Assembly (NCBI GenBank): GCA_903833275.1
Contig: CAILEP010000035.1
Coordinates: 41,602-105,601, forward strand
DNA length: 64,000 bases
Origin: an uncultured Bdellovibrionales bacterium
GTDB lineage: Bacteria; Bdellovibrionota; Bdellovibrionia; Bdellovibrionales; UBA1609
Direction: 5' to 3'
This document shows, piece by piece, positions 14,747 through 38,081 of this stretch. The notes beneath the pieces were generated by a model. The model was not told the DNA's origin, ran no database searches, and saw only the letters and a program-made list of their open reading frames with translations. Every line of letters starts with the position of its first letter. Position 1 is the stretch's first letter. The translations under genes were made by a program, and so were the position numbers.

Positions 14747-17700
14747 TTACTGCGTGCAGTGATAATTGAATTGTTGGCTCGCGGTTGGCGATGCGGAGAA
14801 GTTCATAACCAATGCTGTTGTACTGGCAGAGACATACCACTGGATCGAGCCAGGAAAGCCCGCTGCGGGCGTAATGACGCAGTAAGGAGCCGTGGTATAG
14901 GCTGAGGCAAAAGTAATGGTACAGGCTGTTGGACTTCCGGTGCCTAGGGTTACAACTCCACGGGTATCATTACCCGTAATTGCGGGTGATGTTCCGCAAG
15001 TTCCAACGGTCGCCGCTGTTCCAGAATTCGTAATATGGCCATGAACATCAAGCAGTGCTCCGGGCGCCGTAGTGCCGATGCCGACGTTACCGGTGTCAAA
15101 TGTTGTAGAGGTTCCGTTACGACCTACTGTCATCCAACTTGTACCGGAATTTTTAAAGATGACACTACCGCCGACGCTATTGACGATGGCATTGAATCCA
15201 TCGCCGACACCAAAAGAGGCGCCTCGCGAATTGGTGGTATCGGTAAACAGCGCTATGGGCGAAGCCGAGGACTGAACGTCCAGCCTTTGAGCCGGGCTCG
15301 TCGTGCCTACACCAACATTGCCATTCGTGAAATTAACGCTGCCGGTGCCGAGCGATGCGATGTTGAGAGAAATATTGGTGTCGGTGCCGCCCGCGACTCC
15401 AAGGGTCGGAGCTGAGCCATTTGATGCATTAGTAATATTAAGGCTATTTGTTGACGTATTTGCAGTTGTGTTGCCGCTTGAAAAGCTTAGAAATTTATTG
15501 CCGTAATTGATGTCAGTCATTGTGACAGAAGAAGGGAACCGCCACGAACCTGAATAGAGCCCAAGGACTGTTGAACCGCCGGCGACAAAAGAGAAACCGC
15601 CGTCACCATTGGCTTTAAAACCTGAATTTGTATAGTTCGTAAATGAATACGAAGGCGCAGCGGCACTTCCATTCGGCATGAATATCTGACCACTGCCAAT
15701 CGTGAGTGCGGCAGATGGGCTTGTCGTGCCGATTCCAACGTTGCCGGCTCCATTCAAAGTCATGACTTGCTTCGTTCCAACCGTGGCTGCTCCATCTACT
15801 CCGTAATTCCATAAGTAAAAATCAATCGCATTGTCGCCCGCGACCCCACTACTGTGCCTGGTCTTAATCGAATGTTGATATGACGTACTGTTGTTGTATG
15901 CGAACACGATCTGGTTGTTTCCAAAATAACTTGCTGAATTGCCCGCACGGAGACCGATGGCTGTGTTACTTCCAGTTCCGCCACCTGATTGATTTACGTC
16001 TAACAAATAGCTTGGCGCCGTAGTGCCGATGCCGACGTTGCCGCCTGTGAATGTCGCCGCATAGCCAGCTCCGGATTGCGCGACCGCTAAAGCCGTGTTC
16101 GCACTATTTGTATTTATCGTCTCTTGAACCGTCGTGATTCCGTTTCCGCCGGTTTGAGTGACGCCACCGCTTAGCGTCCATCCGCTGCCGTAAGTTTTCG
16201 TTAAAGTGCCGTCACCCAAGTAGATGGTTCCGGACTGACCAGCCCCTGTGATGCCGTTGTTAATCTTAACAAAACCGGTTTCGACATCGAGACCATAAGC
16301 TGGCGCCGTCGTTCCGATTCCAACGTTGCCGGCCGAGGAGATAGTCATTCGATTCGTGCCGTTTGTTGTTGTAGAGTTTGCAGCGGTATAAAAATTAATA
16401 TCAGTGGCTGCATTGAAGTAACCAGAACCTCCTCCAATTAAAACAGAACTTGTAGATGAGGTATTTGCTCCCAAGATTATGGCCTGGGGACTTTGAGCCG
16501 AGTTGTAATGTGGCATGCCAATTCTTGCGGCCTTATTTGTAGCGTCGGTTCGTGTTTTTAGAACATTATCCGCTCCAATAATTAGTCCTATGGTTCCATC
16601 GGAGATATCTAGTGAAGCACCGGGGCTTATCGTCCCAATCCCGACGCGCCCACTTGAATCAACTCGGAGGCGTTCAGAACCCCCTGTAGAAAGGGCTATT
16701 GCGCTTGCAGCAGGTTGCCATAATCCAGACGCTGTATCTGCCGAGAACGTATGAGATGGGAGGGCAGCGGTGCCTTGAGAGGCCGCAATCACGCCGCCCG
16801 AATAAATGTTTCCGGCAATTCCAACGCCTCCGCTGACCGTTAAAGCGCCCGTCGTGGTCGATGTAGATGCCGTCGAATTAGTGACCGCTCCGGTGCCGGC
16901 ACTCGTAAAGCCGCCGGTTAAGGTCGAAAGGCCCGTTACCCCTAAAGTCGTACCTACGGTGGCCGCGTTCGTGACCGCGAGGCCCGTACCTGTACCCGTG
17001 ATCGAGACATCACCTGAGAACGTGTCGTTTCCGGCGATCGTCTGGCCACCGGCGGTCGTTGCAAGCGTGAGCCGTGAGGCCGACGAATTCGTGTAATAGA
17101 GACTTGTGCCGTCGTATTCGACAGCGCCTGCTTCAGGTGTTGAAAGTAAGGTGCCTGAGTTAAATTTCAAAGGCGATGTTCCAGCGGTTGCAGTGCCGGC
17201 TTTTAACGTCAAGATTGCACTCGGTGAAGTTGTTCCGATTGCCGTTTGACCGCTTGAATTGATCCGCATTCTTTCGGTGCCACCAGTTGACCAAGCAATA
17301 GAGCTCGCTGCTGGCTGCCAAAGCCCTGAAGCCGTATCCGCCGAAAATGTATGCGATGGCAGGGCCGCCGTACCTTGCGACGATGCAACGACGCCGCCGA
17401 GATAAATATTTCCGCCAACGCCAATGCCGCCACCGACAGTCAATGCACCGGTTGTCGTCGATGTTGAAGCCGTGTTGCTGGTGATCGCACCAGCCGCCGC
17501 ACTTGTGAATCCGCCGGTTAAGGTCGTAAGACCCGTTACACCTAAAGTTGTTCCAACCGTTGCGGCGTTTGTTACTACGAGGCCCGTTCCGCTTCCGGAC
17601 ATCGTGACGTCTTGAGAAAACGATTGCGAGCCTGCACCGTTGGTAGATGCGATTGTTCGACGAGTCGCGGTCCAGTCCGTGTAGTAAAGACTTGTTCCGT

Positions 17701-20695
17701 CGTATTCGATCGCGCCCGAAAGCGGTGTCGTGAGATTCACGCCCGAAGTTAACTGCAAAGGTGCAAGCGTTGCGGTGCCGGCTTTAATGTTTAAAAGTGC
17801 GGTCGGAGAAGTGCTTCCGATTCCAACTCGGCCAGAGGTATCGACGGTCACTTGAGTCGTGCCGCCGGTTACAAGGCTTAAATTATTTGCGTCAGCAGTA
17901 CCAATCGATGCCGCAGCTCCAAAGCTGTTGCCGCCAGTTTTAAAATATCTCGAGTCGTATCCGCCCGAAGGAAGATCTGCTGCAGCCAGCGCACGGAATG
18001 TTGGCGTCGCATTTCCGCCGCTCGAGGGACCTGCAAAAACAGTATTTGCGACTTGGGTCGCGAAGGCAGAACCCGTGATGGAAATACTTGAGCACGTCCA
18101 TGATCCGCTCGGTGAAATAAACGTCAGAGTTTGGTTACTCGCGCAGATGGCCGGCATTTGCGAAGCATTGATCATGTTGCCGAGCTGAGTGGAAAGACCA
18201 GATACATCGGAGATCGCAATCGCGGTATTCACCCAGTTCGTGCCGTTGTATTTTAAATACTGTGACGATGCGAGTGATGAAATGCTGTAGGCGACACCAT
18301 TGAGTCCGGTGTTCGTGATAACCCCTGCGTTCGTCATGGTCACGTCGCCACTTGGTGTGACGGCCGTTGCGACACTTGATCCGTTACCGACCCAGATACT
18401 GCCAGAGGCAAGAGTTGAAGTTTGCTTATTATTAAATGTCATAAAGTCAGCTTGAGCCAGGTATCCATCTTGAGTCGCACTCGATTTTGAAATCGAGATC
18501 GCGGGTGTCGCTCCAGCCGAAGACGAAAGTGGTGCTGTTGCGGTGACACTTGTAACCGAACCAGTCGCGGGAACGATCCACGACATATTTCCGCTCGTAT
18601 CACTTGATAAAACGTAACCGGATGTGCCCGGAAGAGCAGGTGGAAGTTTTAAAGCGTAAGACGTTGTAATTGTGGCTGGCGCCTGAAGAGTTGCTGTCTT
18701 CGGCGTGCCTTCACTGTCATTAAGAACAACGCTTGAAAGAGTCGCGTTTGTCGCGGCGAAATTTCCCGATCCATCACGCTTCATCAAAGTCGAAACCGTG
18801 TTGGTGCTAACCGCGCCGTTCGCGAGTAGCTCTGCCGCGTGAACGTTAGCGGCCGTCGAACCACCAACGCTTGCAACAACGGTTGCCCCTTGAGTGCCGG
18901 TGACGTTACCGGCAAGTGAGCCCGTGAAATTTGTTGCGGTGGTTGCGGTTGTCGCAGTCGTTGCACTTCCAGCCGTCAGAGCGCTTTGTGCCGTACAGGT
19001 CCAACCGGTCGTCGTGTTCCAAGTGAGAAGCTGGCCTGATGCGCAGGCAAGGGGTGCCAGCGTAGATCCGTCGTTGGAATCCGTCGCGACGAGTTGGCTG
19101 ACACCTGGGTTCGTAAATAATTTGGCGGTCGTGATGGCGCCGTTGTTAATTTTGGCCGTCGTCACCGCATTCGCGTTGATCGTTGGATTAGGATATGTGC
19201 CGCCAAGATCGCCGCCCGCAGAACCACCAGGCGTCACACCTGTGATCGTAACGTTTCCGGCGTTCGTCAGCTGACCTTGAGCATTAACCGTAAAACTGGG
19301 GACTTGGGTCGCTGAACCGTAGCTTCCTGCGGTGACCGCAGTGTTTGCAAGGTTCACCGTGACCGAGCCCGAGGTGCCACCACCGCTTAAGCCGGTCCCT
19401 GCCGTAATGCCGGTCAATGTACCGACTTGCGGAGAGTTCCACGAAAGATTTCCCGAAGCATCCGTCGTTAGAACTTGCCCGGCGCTGCCAAGAGTTGGTG
19501 GAAGTGTGAGCGAGTAACTATTAGCTAAGTTCGAAACCGTTTGAAGTGTGACTTCATGAGAACCTGAATCATAAATTTGAACGTTTCGGCCGGTGATGTT
19601 TGTGCCCGAGATCGTTGAAGCCACAACCGAGTTTGTGGTCGTAATCAAACCCGATGTGTTAATCGCGGTCGTTCCACCAATTGTTCCCGAATTGATTGCA
19701 CCGCCGAGGACATGACCTGCTGTTTGGATCGTCGGCAGATCAGTTTCAACTAATGAGCTCGATCCGGTGACTCGTCCGTATTGGTCAACGGTCACTTTCG
19801 GATACGTGCCGGCTGTCACTCCACTTGGCGAAAGCGAGATCGTTCCCGATGTCGTGATCGGACCGCCCGTAAGACCTGCTCCGGTCGCAACTGAAGTCAC
19901 CGATCCGCCCGAAGTCCCGATGGTTTGGGTTGAAGTGCCGGTGCTAAACTCAATGCTGTTTGAGCCGGAGTCATACCAAATCTGCCCTGCCGACGGCGAA
20001 GTCGGCGCCGAAGAAAGAACGGGCAAACTCGCTCCGCCCGAAGAAGCGTGCATGTACTGGGTGGATAATCCACCAATCAAATTTTGAAGCTCGGTGAAAT
20101 TCGCGGGACTCAGTGCCGTCGCCGGCTGGGCGTTGCCGCTGCTATCTTCAACTCTGACAAGCGATGACAGTGGAGCACCGCCAACAGCCGATGAGTCCGT
20201 GGCGTAGGCCGAATGGGTCAACGTTGTGACCGGCATTTGATCCCAGGTTGCCATCGCACTGTCTTTAAAATAAATCAAGACCTTGCGTTCATCCGAAGCG
20301 CCCGGCGTATATGTTACGGTCCCCGAACCTGATGCACAGTTCGTGGATGCGACCGGAAACGAGCTTCGGTTTGCAAGGGTTTGCGCAAACGTCCATGTGT
20401 TCGTGTCGTTTCTGGTTCCAGTTCCGTCGTTAAGGGAAACTGAAAAAAGACCCTGCGAATTCGCCAGGTTTTTGGTCTGGGTCTCATCGTAAAGAATGCA
20501 CTGGTGATCTGGACTCAAAACCTGAACACGGAACTGCATCGCCGTTGATTTAAACGGCGTTCCGTTTGCGTCCGCGATGCGGCCTTGGAGCGTGAGAGAC
20601 TGCGCAAGAGAACTTTCAGAATAGAAAAAGGCCACGACAACCGTCGCGAGACACAAAGCAAGTTTGTTGATACGGAAAGACCTCGTTTTTTTCAT
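14747..20695 (-). CDS. giant secreted repeat fibre/adhesin (phage-tail-fibre-like; resembles Bdellovibrio mosaic adhesive trimer fibres)
   Basis: 1982 aa from the Met at 20695, with signal peptide [33 protein letters not shown]. The composition is Gly/Thr/Ser/Ala-rich. The N-terminal half has phage-tail-fibre repeats ('[21 protein letters not shown]'). The C-terminal half has 8 copies of 'G-N-V-G-I-G-T-T-(S/A)-P'. The tip is Cys-containing. Confidence 0.8.
16622..17833 (-). repeat. diverged tandem duplication (~582 and ~600 nt units) inside the fibre gene
   Basis: Two ~195-aa units each run from a GxxxIG(T/S)(T/I)SP motif through '...[13 protein letters not shown]...[15 protein letters not shown](T/S)TLTGGFTSA...[24 protein letters not shown]...'. 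The motif copies lie at 17804-17833, 17222-17251 and 16622-16651. Confidence 0.85.
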
Positions 20696-20860
20696 AGACC
20701 TTAAAGAACTCATCGGCGAAATCGCCGATAGTCTTTGCAGGGCTTTAGGCAATAAAAATGATCTCTACTCACATTGAGATTAAGGTCCGAATCTCGTTAT
20801 GGACCAGGAGATTGCGATGCAGGTAAATCATTTTGATCTACAAGACCCAAGATAAAGGTC

Positions 20861-23137
20861 TTAGTAATCAAATAAAAGTCGCATTTCGACGGTCGAGAAA
20901 ATCGCGCTGTGCTCGCCGTGTTCGGTGACCTGGGGATCAGAATAATTAAAGTGCAGATCGTTATACTGACCGAGCCAGTGGAGTCCAAGCCAAGCGTGCT
21001 CGGAAATATTTTTTTCTATTCCGATCGAGCCGTCGAAAATAAACGGTGAGGTCACCGTAAAGGTAGCGCCCGAGGATGTGGGTGAAGCCGATAGCGGATA
21101 CTGAAAATGCATTAAGATACTGGCTCGCGTCCACGGGTTGAGGTAACGCACGTAACTTCCGCCGAGGCTTAAATTGATGAGGTCGACATTTCGTAACGTC
21201 GGCAGATTTCCAGAGTTTTCAAAAAGAGCGAGCGGGATCTGGTGTAACTGAAGGCCCCACAGCCAACGAAATTCAGAAATATAAGGAAGATTTGTGTTGG
21301 GCGCGGGCGTAAATAGCAAGTTCGACCGGCTGGATCCTTCGAGCGTCATGATTTGCCACTGCGCATGCGTCGTCGAAAGTCCGACCGACGAGTTATCAAA
21401 GCTTAAATCCGTTGAGCGCAACGAAACACCTACGTCCACTTTGTCTGTTACTTCAAAGTTCGCACCAAAGTTCCAACTTTCAGTTGGAAGGCTGTGATAG
21501 CTGGTTTGAACGTCAAAAAGATTTTCTTGATAAGCGAAGTAAGTGGCTCCGACTCCGGCAAAAAGCTTAAGGCCAATCGGCGGCCGTTTTGGAGGGGCGC
21601 TGGCGGTTGCTTGAGGTAAGGGAGCCGTAACCGGCGGATCGATCCTAGGGACCGGCGGCAGCTCTCGTGGCGCGGGTGGTTGGGGAATAACCAGGGGAAC
21701 TGGAGGCAGTTCTAAAGCCCGCACTTGAACAGATTCAGAAGGTGGTACATTCGAAACCGGCTTAAGGATCGATTCAATGACTTTAAGTTGGGCCGGTGGA
21801 GTCACCGAAACTGGAGGTGGTGGCGCAACAGTTGTCGTCGTTGGTGCCAGTGTGGTTGTGGTTGATGGAATGAGGGACGTGGGTGGAGCGGGCACTAGAG
21901 TCGTCGGAGTTTCCGGCGGCACCTGAGCAGGCTCGCGCGGCGCTAAAACCGGCGCATCAACGATGACGTTGATAATACCTGTCTGGGAAATCAGATCAGG
22001 GCGATTTTTCGCCTTTGAGGTCACACGCCAGTACAGTGTTCCCTCTTGAAGTCGGTTCAGCGCAAATTCAGTTTTTTCGACTTCAATCGCGTCCTTGATG
22101 TCGTGAAAGTCAGAACTGACAGACGTTTCAATCCGAAAGAAATCACTTCCAACAAGGTCCTTCCAAAGAAGAGTCGCTGACTGATCGAAGCGACCCTTGT
22201 CGTCCCGCTTGACATGAAATTCCATTTTTTCTTTTTCGAGCTGCGGTGGTGTCAGTGGATTTAAAGAAAAACTAGAGACAGGGCTTTGATCAGAACCCGG
22301 CTCCTCGCCGACGATACGCCAGAAATAAGTGGCCGATGGCTTTAGCAGCGTCGTGGCGTTTTCGCCTTCGACGGTGATCGTTTGAAGGTCGGCTTTAAAT
22401 TCAGGATCCTGGGAAACCTCAAGCCGCATCGACTTTGTTAAAGACGGAGACCAGGCAAATTCGACCGGCTTTCCGTCATCCCATAACGTCGCAGCCGGTT
22501 CAGGGCTCAGAAGCGTCACGGCGTGAGTCGTCATTTGAGTTTGTCCGCCAGCTGAAATTTTTAACTCTTCGTTCGCTTTAACGACCTGTGGCTCAGTGGA
22601 CTTCGATGCATTTGTGACGTTCGCTTCACCATGTAAAACAACGAGATTCAGATCGTCACCGGAAGCGCCCAGCCGAATCGTCGCTCCGTCAGAGGTGACA
22701 TTAGTTTCCCTGCCCTTGTACTTCACAAGCAGAGTAACGCCTTTTCTAATGTTAGTTAAAAATCCTCCCGCGCTTAAATTCACGGCCGACTTTTTGTTTT
22801 CGTCAGAAATTAAAATCGGGCTATTGGGTTCAACCGTAAAATTCTCAAGGTTTTTAAGTTTAACCTTCGCTGCAGATTTTTCTCCAGTGAATACGCGATC
22901 ATTTGAAAAAACATTGGCGTCTCTAGAAACGGGGCTCCAAGACACGTCTGTGTCGCCTTTAATCCGGATATCTGCGCCGACGGGTTTAACAGAGCCGAGA
23001 CTTTCGCGTGCGTTGGTAATATCAGACCTGTCGTTGCGATTGAAGAAAAGGTATCCACCGGAACCGAGCATTCCGATCAAACAAAAAAACATTAAGATGA
23101 ATTCTGGTCTTCGTCGCCAGCCCGTGGAGCGAGACAT
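20861..23137 (-). CDS. FecR-domain protein with two Ig-like repeats, a ~115-aa Pro/Thr-rich linker and a C-terminal outer-membrane beta-barrel-like domain
   Basis: 758 aa with an N-terminal hydrophobic anchor (FILMFFCLIGMLGSGGYLFF). A FecR-like segment follows (VFSNDRVFTGEKSAAKVKL...), then repeats ending YFWRI and LYWRV, then a PPxP-rich stretch. The last ~260 aa have alternating hydrophobic strands and end in the OMP beta-signal 'VEMRLLFDY'. Confidence 0.7.
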   Translation of the reverse strand: MSRSTGWRRRPEFILMFFCLIGMLGSGGYLFFNRNDRSDITNARESLGSVKPVGADIRIKGDTDVSWSPVSRDANVFSNDRVFTGEKSAAKVKLKNLENFTVEPNSPILISDENKKSAVNLSAGGFLTNIRKGVTLLVKYKGRETNVTSDGATIRLGASGDDLNLVVLHGEANVTNASKSTEPQVVKANEELKISAGGQTQMTTHAVTLLSPEPAATLWDDGKPVEFAWSPSLTKSMRLEVSQDPEFKADLQTITVEGENATTLLKPSATYFWRIVGEEPGSDQSPVSSFSLNPLTPPQLEKEKMEFHVKRDDKGRFDQSATLLWKDLVGSDFFRIETSVSSDFHDIKDAIEVEKTEFALNRLQEGTLYWRVTSKAKNRPDLISQTGIINVIVDAPVLAPREPAQVPPETPTTLVPAPPTSLIPSTTTTLAPTTTTVAPPPPVSVTPPAQLKVIESILKPVSNVPPSESVQVRALELPPVPLVIPQPPAPRELPPVPRIDPPVTAPLPQATASAPPKRPPIGLKLFAGVGATYFAYQENLFDVQTSYHSLPTESWNFGANFEVTDKVDVGVSLRSTDLSFDNSSVGLSTTHAQWQIMTLEGSSRSNLLFTPAPNTNLPYISEFRWLWGLQLHQIPLALFENSGNLPTLRNVDLINLSLGGSYVRYLNPWTRASILMHFQYPLSASPTSSGATFTVTSPFIFDGSIGIEKNISEHAWLGLHWLGQYNDLHFNYSDPQVTEHGEHSAIFSTVEMRLLFDY

Positions 23138-28665: not shown

Positions 28666-29817
28666 ATGATAGACAGATTGATAAAGCCCCAATTATTGAA
28701 AGCAGCTAAAAGTGCTCTCTTAATAGGGCCAAGGCAAACGGGTAAATCAACTTTGCTTGGGCAACTTAAGCCTGATTTGACAATTAATTTAGCCGATGAA
28801 AATGAGTTTTTAAGATATTCGGTTGAGGCCAATTTGCTGTCGGAGCAAATTCAATCTAACGCTTACAAGCTTGTTTTAATCGATGAAATTCAGCGTATTC
28901 CAAGTTTAATGAATACGATCCAATTTCTATTAGATGATGCGAAGGTGAGAAAAAAACCTTTACGGTTTTTGCTGTCGGGCTCTAGTGCTAGAAAATTAAA
29001 GCGTGGCCATGCCAATCTGCTACCAGGTCGAGTTTTTTCTTACCAGTTATCCGGTGTCTGTGCGGCTGAGGTTTCGTATAGTCTTGATATAAATCGCTGC
29101 ATGAAATTTGGCTTTCTGCCAGAGCCTTTTTTAGAGAAATCTGAGTTTGATGCGCAAAAACTTCTAGAGAGTTATGGTGCCACCTATTTAAAAGAAGAGA
29201 TTCGGTCTGAAGCGCTATCGAGAAATCTTCAAGGGTTCGCTCGCTTTTTGATGGCAACCGCGAGTGTGGCAGGGCAGGTTGTCGATATGTCTAAAATGGC
29301 TTCTAAATCAAAAGTTTCGAGAAGCAGTGCAGCCCGTTTTTTTGAAATACTTGAAGACACCTTGATTGCTCAACGAATTGCCACCTATGAGGGCGCCGAG
29401 GGTGCCGATATTATAAAACACCCCAAGCTCTATTATTTTGATGTTGGTGTACTCAATGGTCTTCTGAATAACTTTGAGTGCTCAGGTGATCGAAAAGGTT
29501 TGTTATTTGAGCATGTGGTTTATAATCAACTTAGAAATTCGTTTATGGCGCGTGATTTTTCAGTTCAAATTGAATACTTCAGAACCAGACATGGCCTTGA
29601 AATTGATTTTATTGTTAAGGTTAAAAATAAGACTTGGGCTATCGAAGTTAAATCTGGTCATGTCACGGATTCTGATTTGCGGGCCTTAAAAGAATTTAAG
29701 CAATACAAGTCATCGGTTGATCATTTCGCTGTCGTCAGCATTAATGAAAAGAAGCGAATGAAAAATGGCATATTAATTTGTGATTTGCCGACGCTTTTGA
29801 ACGAAATGGGGCTTTAG
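28666..29817 (+). CDS. AAA_14 / DUF4143-family ATPase
   Basis: Walker A 'GPRQTGKSTLL' and Walker B 'LVLIDEIQ', with a C-terminal DUF4143-like region ('YFDVGVLN', 'EIDFIV...WAIEVKSG'). It is visibly AT-richer than its neighbours. Confidence 0.85.
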   Translation: MIDRLIKPQLLKAAKSALLIGPRQTGKSTLLGQLKPDLTINLADENEFLRYSVEANLLSEQIQSNAYKLVLIDEIQRIPSLMNTIQFLLDDAKVRKKPLRFLLSGSSARKLKRGHANLLPGRVFSYQLSGVCAAEVSYSLDINRCMKFGFLPEPFLEKSEFDAQKLLESYGATYLKEEIRSEALSRNLQGFARFLMATASVAGQVVDMSKMASKSKVSRSSAARFFEILEDTLIAQRIATYEGAEGADIIKHPKLYYFDVGVLNGLLNNFECSGDRKGLLFEHVVYNQLRNSFMARDFSVQIEYFRTRHGLEIDFIVKVKNKTWAIEVKSGHVTDSDLRALKEFKQYKSSVDHFAVVSINEKKRMKNGILICDLPTLLNEMGL

Positions 29818-33024: not shown

Positions 33025-33053
33025 TTGACACTTAACGTGCCGCATTCTAAAAA
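33025..33053 (+). promoter_or_regulatory. sigma70-type promoter candidate for the giant AAA+/protease gene
   Basis: TTGACA (33025-33030), a 17-nt spacer, then TAAAAA (33048-33053). The ORF-track TTG 'start' is this -35 box. The real ATG at 33091 is preceded by AAAGGGG. Confidence 0.45.
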
Positions 33054-33090
33054 TCGGGCTCTCGTTAATATCTTAGAAAAGGGGCCTTGG

Positions 33091-36000
33091 ATGAGCGGGC
33101 GACGACTTCTCTTTATGGCGGTGCTTTACCCAACGTTGTTGTGGGCGGCAGTGCCTGCGACTGTTCAGGAGCTTAACGAACACTCTTACAGCGAAGTCAT
33201 TTCAGAGCTCGCCAAATCTGGCGCCGAAACAAAAGAAATTCTATCGCTCATGGCCGAGTTAAACGGCACTGGCACAAGTGTCGAAGAGGCAGCAAAAAAG
33301 CTAGCTCTACAGGCCGACGAGAATATTCTATTTTCGATCTTAGTGCGAATTGAGCACGAGTTTGTTTCGAAGAACATTCAGGGTAGTTTGGCCGAAAATT
33401 TGATCGAAATCGTCGGTAAAGTTGCGAGCCAGAAATATGAAGACATTTTGCGAAGTTTTCGCGAGCAATTGAACGACAAGGCGCTCAATTTTGGTCAGCA
33501 TCGAAAAATATTGCGCCGAACAATAGAAGCGGCACTAGCGCAGGTGAGAACTCGCACTGAAATTGGTCAACTGACTCAGGTTGAAATTGCGCCAAGCGAG
33601 GTGTCAACATTGCCGTTTGGTATGAAATCCTTCAAAGAATATTTGACCAAAGCCGCAAGCGAACAGGCGAAGCAAGGTAGCAGCGCAGGCCGAAACGCGA
33701 AGAATGGTCAGCCGAGCACTCCTGAAGGTTTTGTGCTAATGGCCACGTCGCAAATATTGACCGATGAAATTCGGCGCGAGCGAGCCGCGGGCACCGCTAA
33801 AGCCTTTATTGGTCGTGAAGAAGAGAAAGAGCAAGCGCGTAACGTGATGTTGCGGTCTAAAAATAAAATGCCAGTTTTGGTTGGGCCTTCTGGCGTTGGT
33901 AAATCGACAGTGGCGCTTATGTTGGCTGAAGATTTTTACGATGGTAAAATACCTGATTCGGAGGTTTTTAGAGAGCAATTTAAAAACGCTGAAGTGATCG
34001 AAACTTCTCCGGCCCGAATTTCTCAAATGGCTTTGTCCAATGAGCCCACGGCCCAAGCCGCCGCGCTCGAAATGTTTTTCGATGATGTTCGTCGTGTTGA
34101 AGAAAACTATCGCGAACGCACCGGCAAAGTGAAGCCGATCATCGTTTTAATTGATAACGTTCAGTCTTTTGATCCGCCCCAGATGGCGGCACTTATGCAG
34201 ACTCTCGAAAACAACAAAACCCCTATTCGAGTTATTGGTACGGCCCTGAGCGAAGCTCTCGACCTTAAAACCAAAATGACGGCCGGCATGGCTAAGGTTT
34301 TTGAAAAGATCGCGATCAGAGAGTTTTCAGTTGAAGAGGCGCGTGCTCGAATCGTTGAAACGTGGGCGCCAGAGTTTAAGAAAAAATTTAACGTGACCTT
34401 TGATAATGGCGCCCTTGACGCTGTTTTTCGGGTATCGAAGTACTTGAAGCCGAACAGTGCTCTGCCCGAAGGGCCGATTCGCGCTCTCGAAGACTATTCT
34501 ATCTATATACATGCTAAAAATCCGAAACAAGAAATCGTGGTCACCGGTCGAATGATCTATGATTATGCCCAAAAAATTACTGGCTTGCCGGTCAACCCTC
34601 TCGATGCAGCTGGTTTCTCCGAATATATTGATGGCGTTAGGGCCAAGTTAAATGAGCGTGTTGTTAATCAAGAGCCCATGGTGAAAGTTGCGGTCGACGC
34701 TCTCGAGCGAGCTTTAAGCGGTGACCCGCGTAAGCCAGTCTCAGTTCTTTTTGCGGGCCCAACAGGGGTCGGTAAGACTCTGGTCGGGCAATCTCTTGCT
34801 GAATTCGCGTTCAATGATAAAAATCGTTTCTTTGAAATCGACGGTACCGCTCTTCAAGACGGTAAATATTCGTTGGGTTCAATCTTTGGTGTGCCAACGG
34901 GCATTCAAGGCGCGGATGTTTCATCTGGTGAACTCATGGAGTGGATGGATGACCCGGCCCGCGGCAAATTCGGCGGCATTATCCTGATCAACGAAGCTGA
35001 TAAAATGCACCTGGATGGCTGGAAGCGCCTGATGGAGTTTCTAGATCGAGGCGCACTCTCTGGTGGCGACGGCAAACTTCGCTACGGCAATCGACATATC
35101 GTGATCTTCACATCGAACAAGGGCACGAAGAAAGTGTTTCCGGATTCGTTTGTCGGTTGGTCAGATGCTGAAATTGAAACTCGCGCTAAAAACACCTCAA
35201 CGCAGTTTCTTAAAAACATGCTGCTAGAGCGTGATCTCGAGCCGTCGAAAAACGAAGTTATTTTGACGCCCGAAATTGTCGGTCGAATTGATTTGGCGGC
35301 ATTGGCCTTGCCGGTTACCAAGACCACGGCACCAAGAATTACTGAAATTGAAACTCGTGAGTTCTTAAAGAATTTCAAAGCGACCTACGACGTTGACGTT
35401 GAGGTGAGCAAAGAGCTCAATGCGCAACTTGGGTTGACGGGCGTAAACTTTTTGTCAGGCGCGCGTAATATTCGAAATCAGGTGTCAGAGTATTTAACTC
35501 CCGCATTAAATGCAGCCCGAAAAAAATGGGCTTTAGCAGGTGGCCACACCTTGAAGTTGTCTCTTGAGGCCGCGCAGCCAGGGCAAGCGCCACAAATTGA
35601 AATCGAATTTAACGGCGAGAAGATCACGAGCCCGGCGCCTCAGTTAGCCCATGAAAACCCGCTCGAAGACCCCACCGTGCGCGACATGCTCGCTCATCTC
35701 TCTGAAAAAATGCACAGCCACATGCCCGAACAGCCTGAGGCGGTGGATATTATCGTAAGCGCTGTTCATGGTAAGTACGGTGATGTAAATCGCAAACGCC
35801 CGATTTCAATTTTGTTAGTGGGCCGCACAGGTCTTGGTAAGACCGAAATCGGCAAAGCCTTGGGTTTTGCCGTCTATGGCGATACCGAGAGATATTCGGC
35901 AATACCAATGAGCGATGTTGTTGATGAGCAGAGCTGGAACGAAGTGTTCATCCCGCAATTTGAGCGCGCACTAATGAACAACCCACAAGGTGGCGTTATT

Positions 36001-37314
36001 ATACCTGACGAGTTTTCAAACGTCGGTGGCGGCAACGTTCAGAAGAAAAAGGCTTTGCTGCTTAAATTTTTACATTTGCTCGAAGAAGGCACCTGGGTTT
36101 CGCCAGTCGACCCAACGCGAGTCTACGATTTGCGAAAGTACATCGTATTGTTTACCGGTAATGATCTTGAGACTCTTACTCAGGGTGTAACCAGTGACGA
36201 AGAGAATTTGAATATCTGGAAGGACAATCACTCGCGTGCGAAAGTTGAAACTCACTTAAAAGCCAATGGCGTGCCTGAGTCGTTTCTCAGCCGCCAAGAC
36301 GCGGTTTTGATGATCAAGCCTCTTACTGGTGAAGGCAAAGGTCGAGTCACTGATCGAATATTGATTGAGATCAGCAATCGGTTAATGAAACAACATAAAG
36401 GCGTCAAGTTTAAGTGGGGTGAGAAATTCACCTCGCAGATGGGTCATAGCTTTTTTACCCACGCTCGTGGGGCACGCAGTGTGCGCTCGGTTCTTGAAAA
36501 CACCGTGGCCGCCATGGTGACCGAAGTTTTGACGAAGTTTGGCTACGATCAGAAAAATCTCGACGGCTCTGAAATTCACTTTTCTATCACCGATAACGCC
36601 ATCACAAAGCCCTATATCAAGGGTCACGAATTGCCTCAGCGTGAGGTGATTTTAACGGCAGAGCTCTATAAGGGCGGCGAGCGCCGAGAGTCGCTAAGTG
36701 TAAATGCCACAGAATCGGCAGAGCCCATACAGCTCTTAACCGAGGCTGAAGCCGATTTAGCGAGTTATCACGAATTGGGGCATGCGCTGTTGAACGACGA
36801 GAGCCTAACGGGCCTCAGGCTTGTTCGAATCAGCATTCGAGGTCGATTGATCAATGGCGAATCTGTTATTGGTTACAATAGATATGACACTGTTCGCGGG
36901 GCTTCTCCGAGCCTTACTAGGCGCAGCGTTTTGGCGCGCTTAAAAATGCTCTGGGGTGGTCGCTTGGCCCAAGAGAAAGCTAATTTCGACCCCGATTCGG
37001 GTTGGGAAACTGACCTCGCGAACATGCGACAGATCGCCACCGATTATTTCAAAAAATACGGTTTGAAAGATGGTCTTGAGGCGATGAACCTCGATAGCGA
37101 TGGGCGCCCTCAGCCAAGTCGCGAGCAAACTGTTGAAATGCAAACTGAGATGAAAGCCCTTTTTGATGAATCACGAAAAATGGCAGAGCAAGAGCTTGAA
37201 GTCGTTTGGCCAAAGCTTCTTGAGGCTCACGCGTTGTTAAAAGAGCGCGGTGATATCGAAGGTTCAGAGTTACATGCGAAACCTGCAAAGACCTGTGCCG
37301 ACGAATTAAAGTAG
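33091..37314 (+). CDS. signal-peptide-bearing protein with three Clp-like AAA+ modules and a C-terminal FtsH/M41-like metalloprotease domain
   Basis: Signal peptide MSGRRLLFMAVLYPTLLWAAVPA. Walker A boxes lie at 33883 (GPSGVGKS), 34756 (GPTGVGKT) and 35821 (GRTGLGKT). Clp signatures are 'FIGREEEKEQ', 'VVNQEPMVKVAVDAL' and sensor-1 'IFTSN'/'LFTGN'. M41 signatures are 'SYHELGHALL' (HExxH at 36769-36783), 'ISIRGR', 'WGGRLAQE' and 'DLANMRQIATDYFKKYGL'. Confidence 0.8.
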   Translation: MSGRRLLFMAVLYPTLLWAAVPATVQELNEHSYSEVISELAKSGAETKEILSLMAELNGTGTSVEEAAKKLALQADENILFSILVRIEHEFVSKNIQGSLAENLIEIVGKVASQKYEDILRSFREQLNDKALNFGQHRKILRRTIEAALAQVRTRTEIGQLTQVEIAPSEVSTLPFGMKSFKEYLTKAASEQAKQGSSAGRNAKNGQPSTPEGFVLMATSQILTDEIRRERAAGTAKAFIGREEEKEQARNVMLRSKNKMPVLVGPSGVGKSTVALMLAEDFYDGKIPDSEVFREQFKNAEVIETSPARISQMALSNEPTAQAAALEMFFDDVRRVEENYRERTGKVKPIIVLIDNVQSFDPPQMAALMQTLENNKTPIRVIGTALSEALDLKTKMTAGMAKVFEKIAIREFSVEEARARIVETWAPEFKKKFNVTFDNGALDAVFRVSKYLKPNSALPEGPIRALEDYSIYIHAKNPKQEIVVTGRMIYDYAQKITGLPVNPLDAAGFSEYIDGVRAKLNERVVNQEPMVKVAVDALERALSGDPRKPVSVLFAGPTGVGKTLVGQSLAEFAFNDKNRFFEIDGTALQDGKYSLGSIFGVPTGIQGADVSSGELMEWMDDPARGKFGGIILINEADKMHLDGWKRLMEFLDRGALSGGDGKLRYGNRHIVIFTSNKGTKKVFPDSFVGWSDAEIETRAKNTSTQFLKNMLLERDLEPSKNEVILTPEIVGRIDLAALALPVTKTTAPRITEIETREFLKNFKATYDVDVEVSKELNAQLGLTGVNFLSGARNIRNQVSEYLTPALNAARKKWALAGGHTLKLSLEAAQPGQAPQIEIEFNGEKITSPAPQLAHENPLEDPTVRDMLAHLSEKMHSHMPEQPEAVDIIVSAVHGKYGDVNRKRPISILLVGRTGLGKTEIGKALGFAVYGDTERYSAIPMSDVVDEQSWNEVFIPQFERALMNNPQGGVIIPDEFSNVGGGNVQKKKALLLKFLHLLEEGTWVSPVDPTRVYDLRKYIVLFTGNDLETLTQGVTSDEENLNIWKDNHSRAKVETHLKANGVPESFLSRQDAVLMIKPLTGEGKGRVTDRILIEISNRLMKQHKGVKFKWGEKFTSQMGHSFFTHARGARSVRSVLENTVAAMVTEVLTKFGYDQKNLDGSEIHFSITDNAITKPYIKGHELPQREVILTAELYKGGERRESLSVNATESAEPIQLLTEAEADLASYHELGHALLNDESLTGLRLVRISIRGRLINGESVIGYNRYDTVRGASPSLTRRSVLARLKMLWGGRLAQEKANFDPDSGWETDLANMRQIATDYFKKYGLKDGLEAMNLDSDGRPQPSREQTVEMQTEMKALFDESRKMAEQELEVVWPKLLEAHALLKERGDIEGSELHAKPAKTCADELK

Positions 37315-37322
37315 TCAGGCAG

Positions 37323-38081
37323 ATGCAATACGCGCGCACACGCAATCGTTTCGACCCTCTCTCTGAGAAACCGTTTCGCCTTTCTCGATCAAAGCTTGAA
37401 CTGTTCATGAATTGTCAGCGCTGTTTCTACCTCGATCGCCGCTTAGGGATCGGGGCGCCGCCGAGCTTTCCGTTTAACTTAAATAATGCCGTTGATGCGC
37501 TTTTAAAAAAAGAATTCGATGAATATCGCGAACGGGGCATCCCGCACCCCTTGATGACTAAGAACAAGATCGCAGCCGTGCCGTTTCGTCATGAGAAGAT
37601 GGATCACTGGCGAGACGCTCTTCGTGGCGGGGTTTCATTTCACCACGCCGAAAGCAATTTTACCTTATCGGGCGGTATCGACGACCTTTGGCTCAATGGT
37701 GCGGGAGAGTTGATTATTGTTGATTACAAAGCCACCTCGAAGGCTGAGCGCGTATCGCTCGATGCCGATTGGCAAATTAGCTATAAGCGCCAATTAGAAG
37801 TTTATGCTTGGCTCTTTAGCCAAAATGATTTCAAGGTAGCCGAGGTGGGCTATTTCGTTTACTGCAATGCGCTCGCAACTGGGGCGCGCTTTGATCAGCG
37901 TCTTGATTTTGATATTTCGTTTTTGCCCTATAAAATTTCGGATGGTTGGGTCGGGCCGGCATTAAATCGCGCACGCGAATGTTTGCTGCAAAGCGAATTG
38001 CCGATTTATGGCGAAAACTGCGTTTACTGCGGCTACAATGAGGCCATTGGGCGTCTTAACAATCAGCTCAGTCTTTTTTAG
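37323..38081 (+). CDS. PD-(D/E)XK nuclease, RecB/Cas4-like
   Basis: 'GGIDDLW...LIIVDYKATSK' (D...DxK) and 'YKRQLEVYAWL' (QxxxY), with Cys pairs 'CQRC' near the N-terminus and 'CVYC' near the C-terminus. It starts 8 nt after the upstream stop. Confidence 0.75.
   Translation: MQYARTRNRFDPLSEKPFRLSRSKLELFMNCQRCFYLDRRLGIGAPPSFPFNLNNAVDALLKKEFDEYRERGIPHPLMTKNKIAAVPFRHEKMDHWRDALRGGVSFHHAESNFTLSGGIDDLWLNGAGELIIVDYKATSKAERVSLDADWQISYKRQLEVYAWLFSQNDFKVAEVGYFVYCNALATGARFDQRLDFDISFLPYKISDGWVGPALNRARECLLQSELPIYGENCVYCGYNEAIGRLNNQLSLF

Follow-up and report, generated by a model that had tools for sequence, protein, structure and literature searches.

The window analyzed in this study is a stretch of 64,000 nucleotides (nt) from contig CAILEP010000035.1 of an uncultured Bdellovibrionales bacterium (assembly GCA_903833275.1). 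Its plus strand harbors a gene for a protein of 1,407 amino acids (aa) in which three Clp-type AAA+ modules are joined to an FtsH-type (M41) peptidase in one chain, followed by a short gene for a nuclease of the PD-(D/E)XK type. Textbook AAA+ proteases follow a few architectures: the peptidase is either a separate partner of a Clp or HslU unfoldase, or it is fused to one AAA module as in Lon and FtsH. Two or three Clp/Hsp100 modules fused to an M41 domain would represent an architecture which nobody has studied so far.

The open reading frame (ORF) of the fusion protein extends from a TTG at 33025 or an ATG at 33091 to position 37314. Since the TTG is better read as the -35 box of a promoter-like sequence and an AAGGGG motif precedes the ATG, the start at 33091 is favored. 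A preliminary description of the locus had proposed a signal-like N-terminus, a helical region, one D1-like and two D2-like modules, and an M41 domain for this coding sequence (CDS). All motif strings quoted there are present in the translation, and the layout was borne out by Pfam, NCBIfam, and profile matches. The features of the locus are listed in Table 1.

Table 1. Features of the AAA+/M41 fusion gene and the adjacent nuclease gene (positions refer to the window)
Feature	Position	Strand	Basis
Promoter-like sequence of sigma-70 type, TTGACA-18 nt-AAAAAT	33025..33054	+	10/12 matches; consensus match only
CDS of the fusion of three AAA+ modules and M41, 1,407 aa	33091..37314	+	ORF, Pfam, NCBIfam, and PDB profile matches
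Signal-peptide-like segment (Sec-type), MSGRRLLFMAVLYPTLLWAAVPA	33091..33159	+	Basic n-region, hydrophobic core, small residues before the likely cleavage site
Helical region, ~210 aa, without family match	33160..33795	+	Pfam/NCBIfam negative; region variable across the family
AAA+ module 1, ClpA-D1-like, no M-domain insertion	33796..34605	+	Walker A GPSGVGKS; Walker B LIDNV
AAA+ module 2, ClpB/ClpC-D2-type, with D2-small domain	34606..35580	+	Walker A GPTGVGKT; sensor-1 TSN; sensor-2 GAR
Beta-hairpin linker and AAA+ module 3, second D2-type	35581..36675	+	Walker A GRTGLGKT; Walker B PDEF; sensor-1 TGN; sensor-2 GAR
M41 (FtsH-type) zinc metallopeptidase domain	36676..37245	+	HELGH 36769-36783; third zinc ligand D1308 37012-37014
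C-terminal tail with Cys C1402 (nt 37294-37296)	37246..37311	+	Sole Cys of the window protein
PD-(D/E)XK (Cas4/RecB-like) nuclease gene, 252 aa, no signal peptide	37323..38081	+	PDDEXK_1 match

The domain assignments are based on several comparisons. Module 1 is matched by Pfam AAA_16/AAA_22 at residues 239-382, and the NCBIfam model of ClpA (PRK11034) aligns over residues 230-685; taken together, the ClpA and ClpB alignments of NCBIfam cover residues 230-825. In module 2, Pfam places AAA_2 at 548-734 (E 1e-21) and ClpB_D2-small at 745-806. A third P-loop is located near residue 911. Residues 830-1407 were combined with the two closest full-length relatives into a profile, which in the PDB matched D2 of ClpC/ClpB (E about 1e-32) as well as FtsH protease domains (E 1.5e-18). 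Between modules 2 and 3 the similarity is distant (BLASTP E 1e-8 over 69 residues), so that the third module is not a recent duplication. Pfam Peptidase_M41 (PF01434) was found at 1216-1369 with 41.7 bits against a gathering score of 29.9. In the alignment with Thermotoga maritima FtsH, YHELGHA is placed opposite YHEAGHA. The Asp in "wetD" pairs with that in "aanD", which in FtsH structures is the third zinc ligand. The aligned zinc-site residues of the window protein are H1227, E1228, H1231, and D1308, and the M41-like region of the preliminary description thus has its zinc ligands, HEXXH and Asp, in place.

Structure modeling gave a consistent picture for the C-terminal half. The AlphaFold model of module 3 and M41, calculated from a 15-sequence alignment, reached a predicted local distance difference test (pLDDT) score of 85.9 and a predicted template-modeling (pTM) score of 0.73. 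Its ATPase part superposes on nucleotide-binding domain 2 (NBD2) of ClpB with template-modeling (TM) scores of 0.72-0.78, and the FtsH chain 3kds aligns with the model over 562 columns, covering both parts. A first AlphaFold run over residues 208-1407 with three sequences was of low quality (pLDDT 62, pTM 0.37) and served only for coarse matching by Foldseek, in which ~650 columns were aligned with the two-ring chains of ClpC, ClpB, and ClpA (E about 1e-24).

None of the curated cut-offs for the known proteins was reached: the scores were 174 bits against 1232 for ClpB (TIGR03346), 168 against 993 for ClpA (TIGR02639), and 51 against 600, for the protease part only, for FtsH (TIGR01241). The Clp_N domain (PF02861), present in all ClpC/ClpB matches, was not found in the window protein, and its N-terminal 234 residues match no family of Pfam or of NCBIfam, the latter scanned at E<=10. 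Likewise, nothing credible was obtained for the N-terminal regions of seven family members in Pfam (E<=1) or for four C-terminal tails in NCBIfam (E<=10). A regular-expression search for loops of the IGF/IGL type, by which ClpA, ClpC, and ClpX dock to ClpP, gave only LGL at 780 and LGF at 924, the latter in the helix following the Walker A motif of module 3; these are sequence positions only.

In its tandem AAA+ modules of one clade, the protein resembles the class I Clp/Hsp100 proteins ClpA, ClpC, and ClpB: module 1 is similar to D1 of ClpA, and modules 2 and 3 are similar to D2 of ClpB/ClpC, a likeness that extends to the D2-small domain and to the sensor-2 motif GAR. Unlike these proteins it has three modules instead of two and a signal-like N-terminus, and it lacks Clp_N as well as the M-domain. 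Furthermore, its protease is located in cis and is a zinc enzyme of the M41 type, in contrast to the separate serine peptidase ClpP. With FtsH, YME1, and AFG3L2 it shares a C-terminal M41 domain with HEXXH and Asp ligand which directly follows an AAA+ module of the same chain. However, this module is of the Clp D2 type and not the classic-clade AAA of FtsH, members of the family have two or three ATPase modules where FtsH has one, and a single N-terminal hydrophobic segment takes the place of the two transmembrane helices and the periplasmic loop of FtsH. As in Lon, unfoldase and peptidase form one polypeptide without a separate partner; Lon belongs to another AAA+ subfamily and is a cytoplasmic protease with a single ATPase ring and a Ser-Lys S16 peptidase.

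Machines of the Clp/Hsp100 or FtsH type with a signal peptide or outward topology are represented by Plasmodium HSP101 (PTEX), the torsins, and phytoplasma FtsH/AAA+ proteins, all of which work in ATP-containing host or lumenal compartments. HSP101 was among the sequence matches in the PDB (6e10/6e11), and Pfam Torsin matched weakly at residues 513-576. These proteins, which are eukaryotic or from mollicutes, differ from the window protein in lacking three modules or an M41 domain behind Clp-type modules, and the likeness is one of logic, not of membership. The outward-facing FtsH proteins of phytoplasmas have been described previously (PMC6981957).

The preliminary description had named no known family with this architecture. 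A word-index homology search with the whole protein yielded only three true relatives, because candidates of the ClpC/ClpB type filled the candidate list, and only four were obtained with a 15-sequence profile; an exhaustive profile search was therefore needed. Among 1.84 billion cluster representatives (50% identity clusters), this search detected 245 proteins at E<=1e-30. The family was defined as the 139 representatives at E<=5e-65, most of which cover module 3 and M41, although some are fragments. Their annotations in the source databases are generic ("ClpA", "ClpC", "AAA family ATPase", or "hypothetical"), as are the NCBI names "AAA family ATPase [Oligoflexia bacterium]" or "[Deltaproteobacteria bacterium]". 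The literature searched contained no description of the family, nor of an exported Clp-M41 protease. The statement thus stands as far as a name or description is concerned, but the protein is no orphan, as about 139 clusters share the core of module 3 and M41.

Most of the representatives have a length of 1,100-1,570 residues. The HExxH motif is found in 131 of the 139, and Walker A motifs are present three times in 55 and twice in 38. A Cys is located within the last 30 residues in 132/139, being the only Cys of the protein in 56. Among 15 diverse members, no variation was seen in Walker A, in the Asn of sensor-1, in the Gly and Arg of sensor-2, in H-E-x-x-H and the Asp of the third ligand, or in the C-terminal Cys; of the Walker B motif, the Asp is invariant and the Glu nearly so. 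In module 3, the motifs for nucleotide binding and the sensor motifs are intact across the family. Outside the subclade of the window protein, module 3 shows a GYVGS-like aromatic pore loop in most members and a DE Walker B in nearly all. The N-terminal regions differ from member to member. Large extra domains are fused to the AAA-M41 core in P0127 (2,327 aa), named "SUMF1/EgtB/PvdO family" by NCBI, and in P0204 (2,040 aa); the two proteins have in common a domain of ~300 residues ("LFGG.AA..A.Y.Y...") which is C-terminal in one and N-terminal in the other.

So far as seen, the family occurs only in genomes of Bdellovibrionota/Oligoflexia and in metagenomes. A scan of one genome per GTDB species revealed 12 loci with real similarity, all of them in metagenome-assembled genomes (MAGs) labeled Bdellovibrionales, Bdellovibrionaceae, Bdellovibrionota, Oligoflexia, or unclassified. 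The window itself is chromosomal DNA carrying ffh, lptD, and lytic transglycosylase genes, and its Ffh protein is closest to those of Bdellovibrionales MAGs (80% identity). A family with an export signal appears to be confined to a phylum of bacterial predators. Micavibrio was considered as a second predator lineage and rejected, since its locus (L015) contains two tandem two-ring ClpA-like genes without M41 or signal peptide. These genes on the chromosome of Micavibrio aeruginosavorus (L015 8558-11068 and 11295-13772) encode paralogous ClpA-like ATPases of ~830 aa with long unmatched N-terminal regions.

At the N-termini of the family, basic residues are followed by a hydrophobic core 10-16 residues long and by small residues at -3/-1, with cleavage-like examples such as VFA|DE, LWA|KD, and VSA|NN. 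Export was scored by a rule requiring an uncharged hydrophobic 10-mer of >=2.2, a net positive n-region, and an AXA-like site. Of 98 full-length members, 73 satisfied this rule, compared with none of 117 cytoplasmic ClpB/ClpC controls, and a second transmembrane segment (19-residue window) is absent in 97 of the 98. By this measure the family looks exported, and a conserved export signal would imply that the protein works outside the cytoplasm of its producer. At the other end, the tails of the window protein, P0002, P0003, and P0121-P0256 were compared and share, when aligned on the Cys, the motif C-x-x-[LAIV]-[LF], the Cys being followed by 1-28 residues, mostly 4-14 and most often 5-10. A zinc latch, a disulphide staple, and a site of attachment are conceivable roles for this Cys. 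Sorting signals with a C-terminal Cys are known to be tripartite, consisting of a Cys motif, a transmembrane helix, and an Arg cluster (bioRxiv 10.1101/2023.06.07.544157). A signal of the MYXO-CTERM/JDVT-CTERM type was rejected for the tail, as no hydrophobic helix follows the Cys and no NCBIfam match was obtained.

The nuclease gene begins 8 nt behind the stop codon (TAG) of the fusion gene, a distance given already in the preliminary description. The gap contains no terminator, and in this genome the two genes are probably co-transcribed. Like Cas4/RecB-type nucleases, its product matches PDDEXK_1 (E 9e-13) and carries Cys pairs at both ends. Unlike Cas4, it stays below the cut-off of the cas4 model TIGR00372 (26.6 bits against 65), and its relatives are found in many unrelated contexts. 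The nuclease family comprises at least 290 metagenomic relatives with 50-60% identity, and the neighbors vary among the 80 loci studied (L083-L162), where the commonest neighbor cluster occurs in only 13.

From this arrangement, the preliminary description had derived a possible anti-phage logic in which ATPase, protease, and nuclease are coupled, and it had asked whether homologues fall in defence islands. A two-gene system of this kind, anti-phage or otherwise coupled, would fit the short gap and the probable co-transcription, as well as weak PADLOC matches to PDC-M37B and DolB over the AAA_2 region and to Cas4 (E 2.5e-7). In addition, an ATPase gene located 3.3 kb upstream of the fusion gene (28666-29817, plus strand; AAA_14 and DUF4143) matches the candidate single-gene defence family PDC-S01 of PADLOC (E 6e-51); a major facilitator superfamily (MFS) transporter, a small ORF, and TerC are encoded between the two. 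However, PADLOC recognized no specific system, its matches being limited to generic AAA regions and the weak Cas4 hit, and the locus does not lie in a recognizable defence island. The neighborhood includes TerC, MFS transporters, a LuxR-type regulator, and a patatin-like protein, and no cas genes were found among the neighbors scanned (CRISPR arrays were not searched explicitly). No relative of the nuclease was detected by tblastn in 14 homologue loci with flanks of up to 10 kb, and conversely none of the 80 loci of nuclease relatives contained an AAA-M41 or Clp relative. The pairing is thus conserved in neither direction, an outcome which the preliminary description itself had counted against the idea. 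All-versus-all comparison of flanking ORFs in the 14 loci revealed no conserved neighbor gene beyond the near-identical L008/L009. A 260-aa gene downstream of P0003, considered as a hidden counterpart of the nuclease, showed no similarity.

One homologue, P0002 (42% identical; L001 10001-13792 on a contig of JGI 3300003465), is located in the dcw cluster, where it separates ftsQ from murB and is read from the opposite strand. Compared with the ATPase-protease, the nuclease family has a far wider distribution and a higher conservation. Moreover, a signal-like N-terminus is seen in the fusion protein but no signal peptide in the nuclease, which would place them in different compartments. In view of the non-co-occurrence, the lack of a conserved neighbor, and the nuclease without signal, the defence-system reading is rejected and a two-gene system of any kind is regarded as extremely improbable. 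The downstream nuclease was judged to be a widespread independent gene, adjacent by accident of one genome, and not a functional partner; the lesson is that a gene pairing suggestive of a defence system can be such an accident. The idea of a prey-directed effector pair, also raised for this locus, survives for the large protein alone with its signal-like N-terminus, and falls for the nuclease.

On balance, we lean towards the view that the window protein belongs to an unnamed family of exported proteins and acts as a stand-alone, self-contained ATP-dependent protease, possibly on prey, and that the nuclease is unrelated to it. The general plan of the family would begin with a signal peptide of the Sec type and an N-terminal domain that varies among members. 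Two or three Clp/Hsp100 modules would follow, of which the ClpA-D1-like one is optional and precedes two of the ClpB-D2 type, and then the M41 domain and the Cys tail. By analogy with ClpAP and FtsH, six chains could form stacked ATPase rings which unfold substrates and feed them into a protease chamber provided by the same chains, so that neither ClpP nor any other gene partner would be required. As there is no ATP in the periplasm, the most coherent, albeit speculative, reading would place its action within or at an invaded prey cell, whose ATP could then be used. If the protein is active, the question of where an exported ATPase finds its ATP becomes a sharp one, and the answer may point to a tool for prey digestion.

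A more specific version, which we consider unlikely, is an exported "portable proteasome", i.e. a hexamer with two or three stacked Clp-type rings and an FtsH-type zinc protease chamber, delivered to the prey, that would unfold and digest folded prey proteins with prey ATP. Its C-terminal Cys might then be a latch of the zinc "cysteine switch" kind, a staple between subunits, or an attachment point. If this were true, the family would constitute a new architectural class of AAA+ proteases and the first bacterially secreted ATP-dependent protease known.

Several points weigh against the favored view of an exported, self-contained protease. The assignment of export comes from a home-made rule rather than from SignalP, and the window copy itself (MSGRRLLFMAVLYPTLLWAAVPA) reaches a core value of only 1.85 on the 10-residue window against the threshold of 2.2, with the same layout. 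Placing a machine driven by ATP outside the cytoplasm creates a paradox, except if it gains access to a compartment with ATP. Hexamers and threading are carried over from homologues, and it is taxonomy that suggests the link to predation. No carrier was found among cultured predators, where absence is unproven because the scan, based on no more than two peptide patterns, can overlook members. The ATP problem would be solved if the N-terminal segment were an uncleaved anchor with the body of the protein in the cytoplasm, where it could act like an enlarged FtsH in the quality control of membrane or aggregated proteins. FtsH itself is membrane-anchored, the hydrophobic segment of the window protein is only moderately signal-like, and the homologue in the dcw cluster lies beside membrane-associated division genes. 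Throughout the family, however, basic residues precede the core and small, then acidic residues follow it, an order which predicts an N-in/C-out topology or cleavage and not a C-in topology. Together with the commonness of AXA-type sites (VFA|DE, LWA|KD) and the single hydrophobic segment where FtsH has two, this makes an anchored cytoplasmic protease rather improbable.

Further points against an active exported protease concern the machinery itself. In the majority of the family, including otherwise canonical members, module 2 has "NE" in place of "DE" in its Walker B motif (window residues 632-636, nt 34984-34998), which looks like a conserved deviation rather than decay. The window protein groups with P0122, P0274, P0002, and P0128 at 41-57% identity, and in this subclade the pore loop of module 3 is deleted or shortened, the window copy being ~12 residues shorter there than most of the family. 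Its module-2 pore loop, PTGIQG, has no aromatic residue either, so that none of its pore loops carries one, unlike the GYVG loop of Clp D2. In its module-1 Walker B motif (DN), the catalytic Glu is replaced by Asn, and DN, DG, or DD is found at this place in all members of the subclade except P0002. The HEXXH motif is broken in the close relatives P0122 (HEVGR), P0002 (HHIGH), P0128 (YYVGR), and L004 (REAGR), which suggests relaxed selection on proteolysis in the subclade.

Judged by these motifs, the window copy may be weakened or repurposed. Carried further, the subclade protein would no longer thread or cleave and would be a nucleotide-binding scaffold, a holdase, or a decaying gene, for all of which the altered pore loop, zinc site, and Walker B motif speak. 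This explanation appears doubtful to us, as the ORF is intact across 4.2 kb and the window copy has retained HELGH with the Asp of the third ligand, all three Walker A motifs, the DE of module 3, sensor-1, sensor-2, and the C-terminal Cys. The identity of 41-57% within the subclade furthermore indicates that its members have been maintained for long.

Outside the locus, two adjacent minus-strand ORFs of 2,001 aa (14747-20752) and 758 aa (20861-23137) gave no Pfam match at E<=1e-5. Both are located in a stretch with a G+C content of 0.54, compared with about 0.48 around it.

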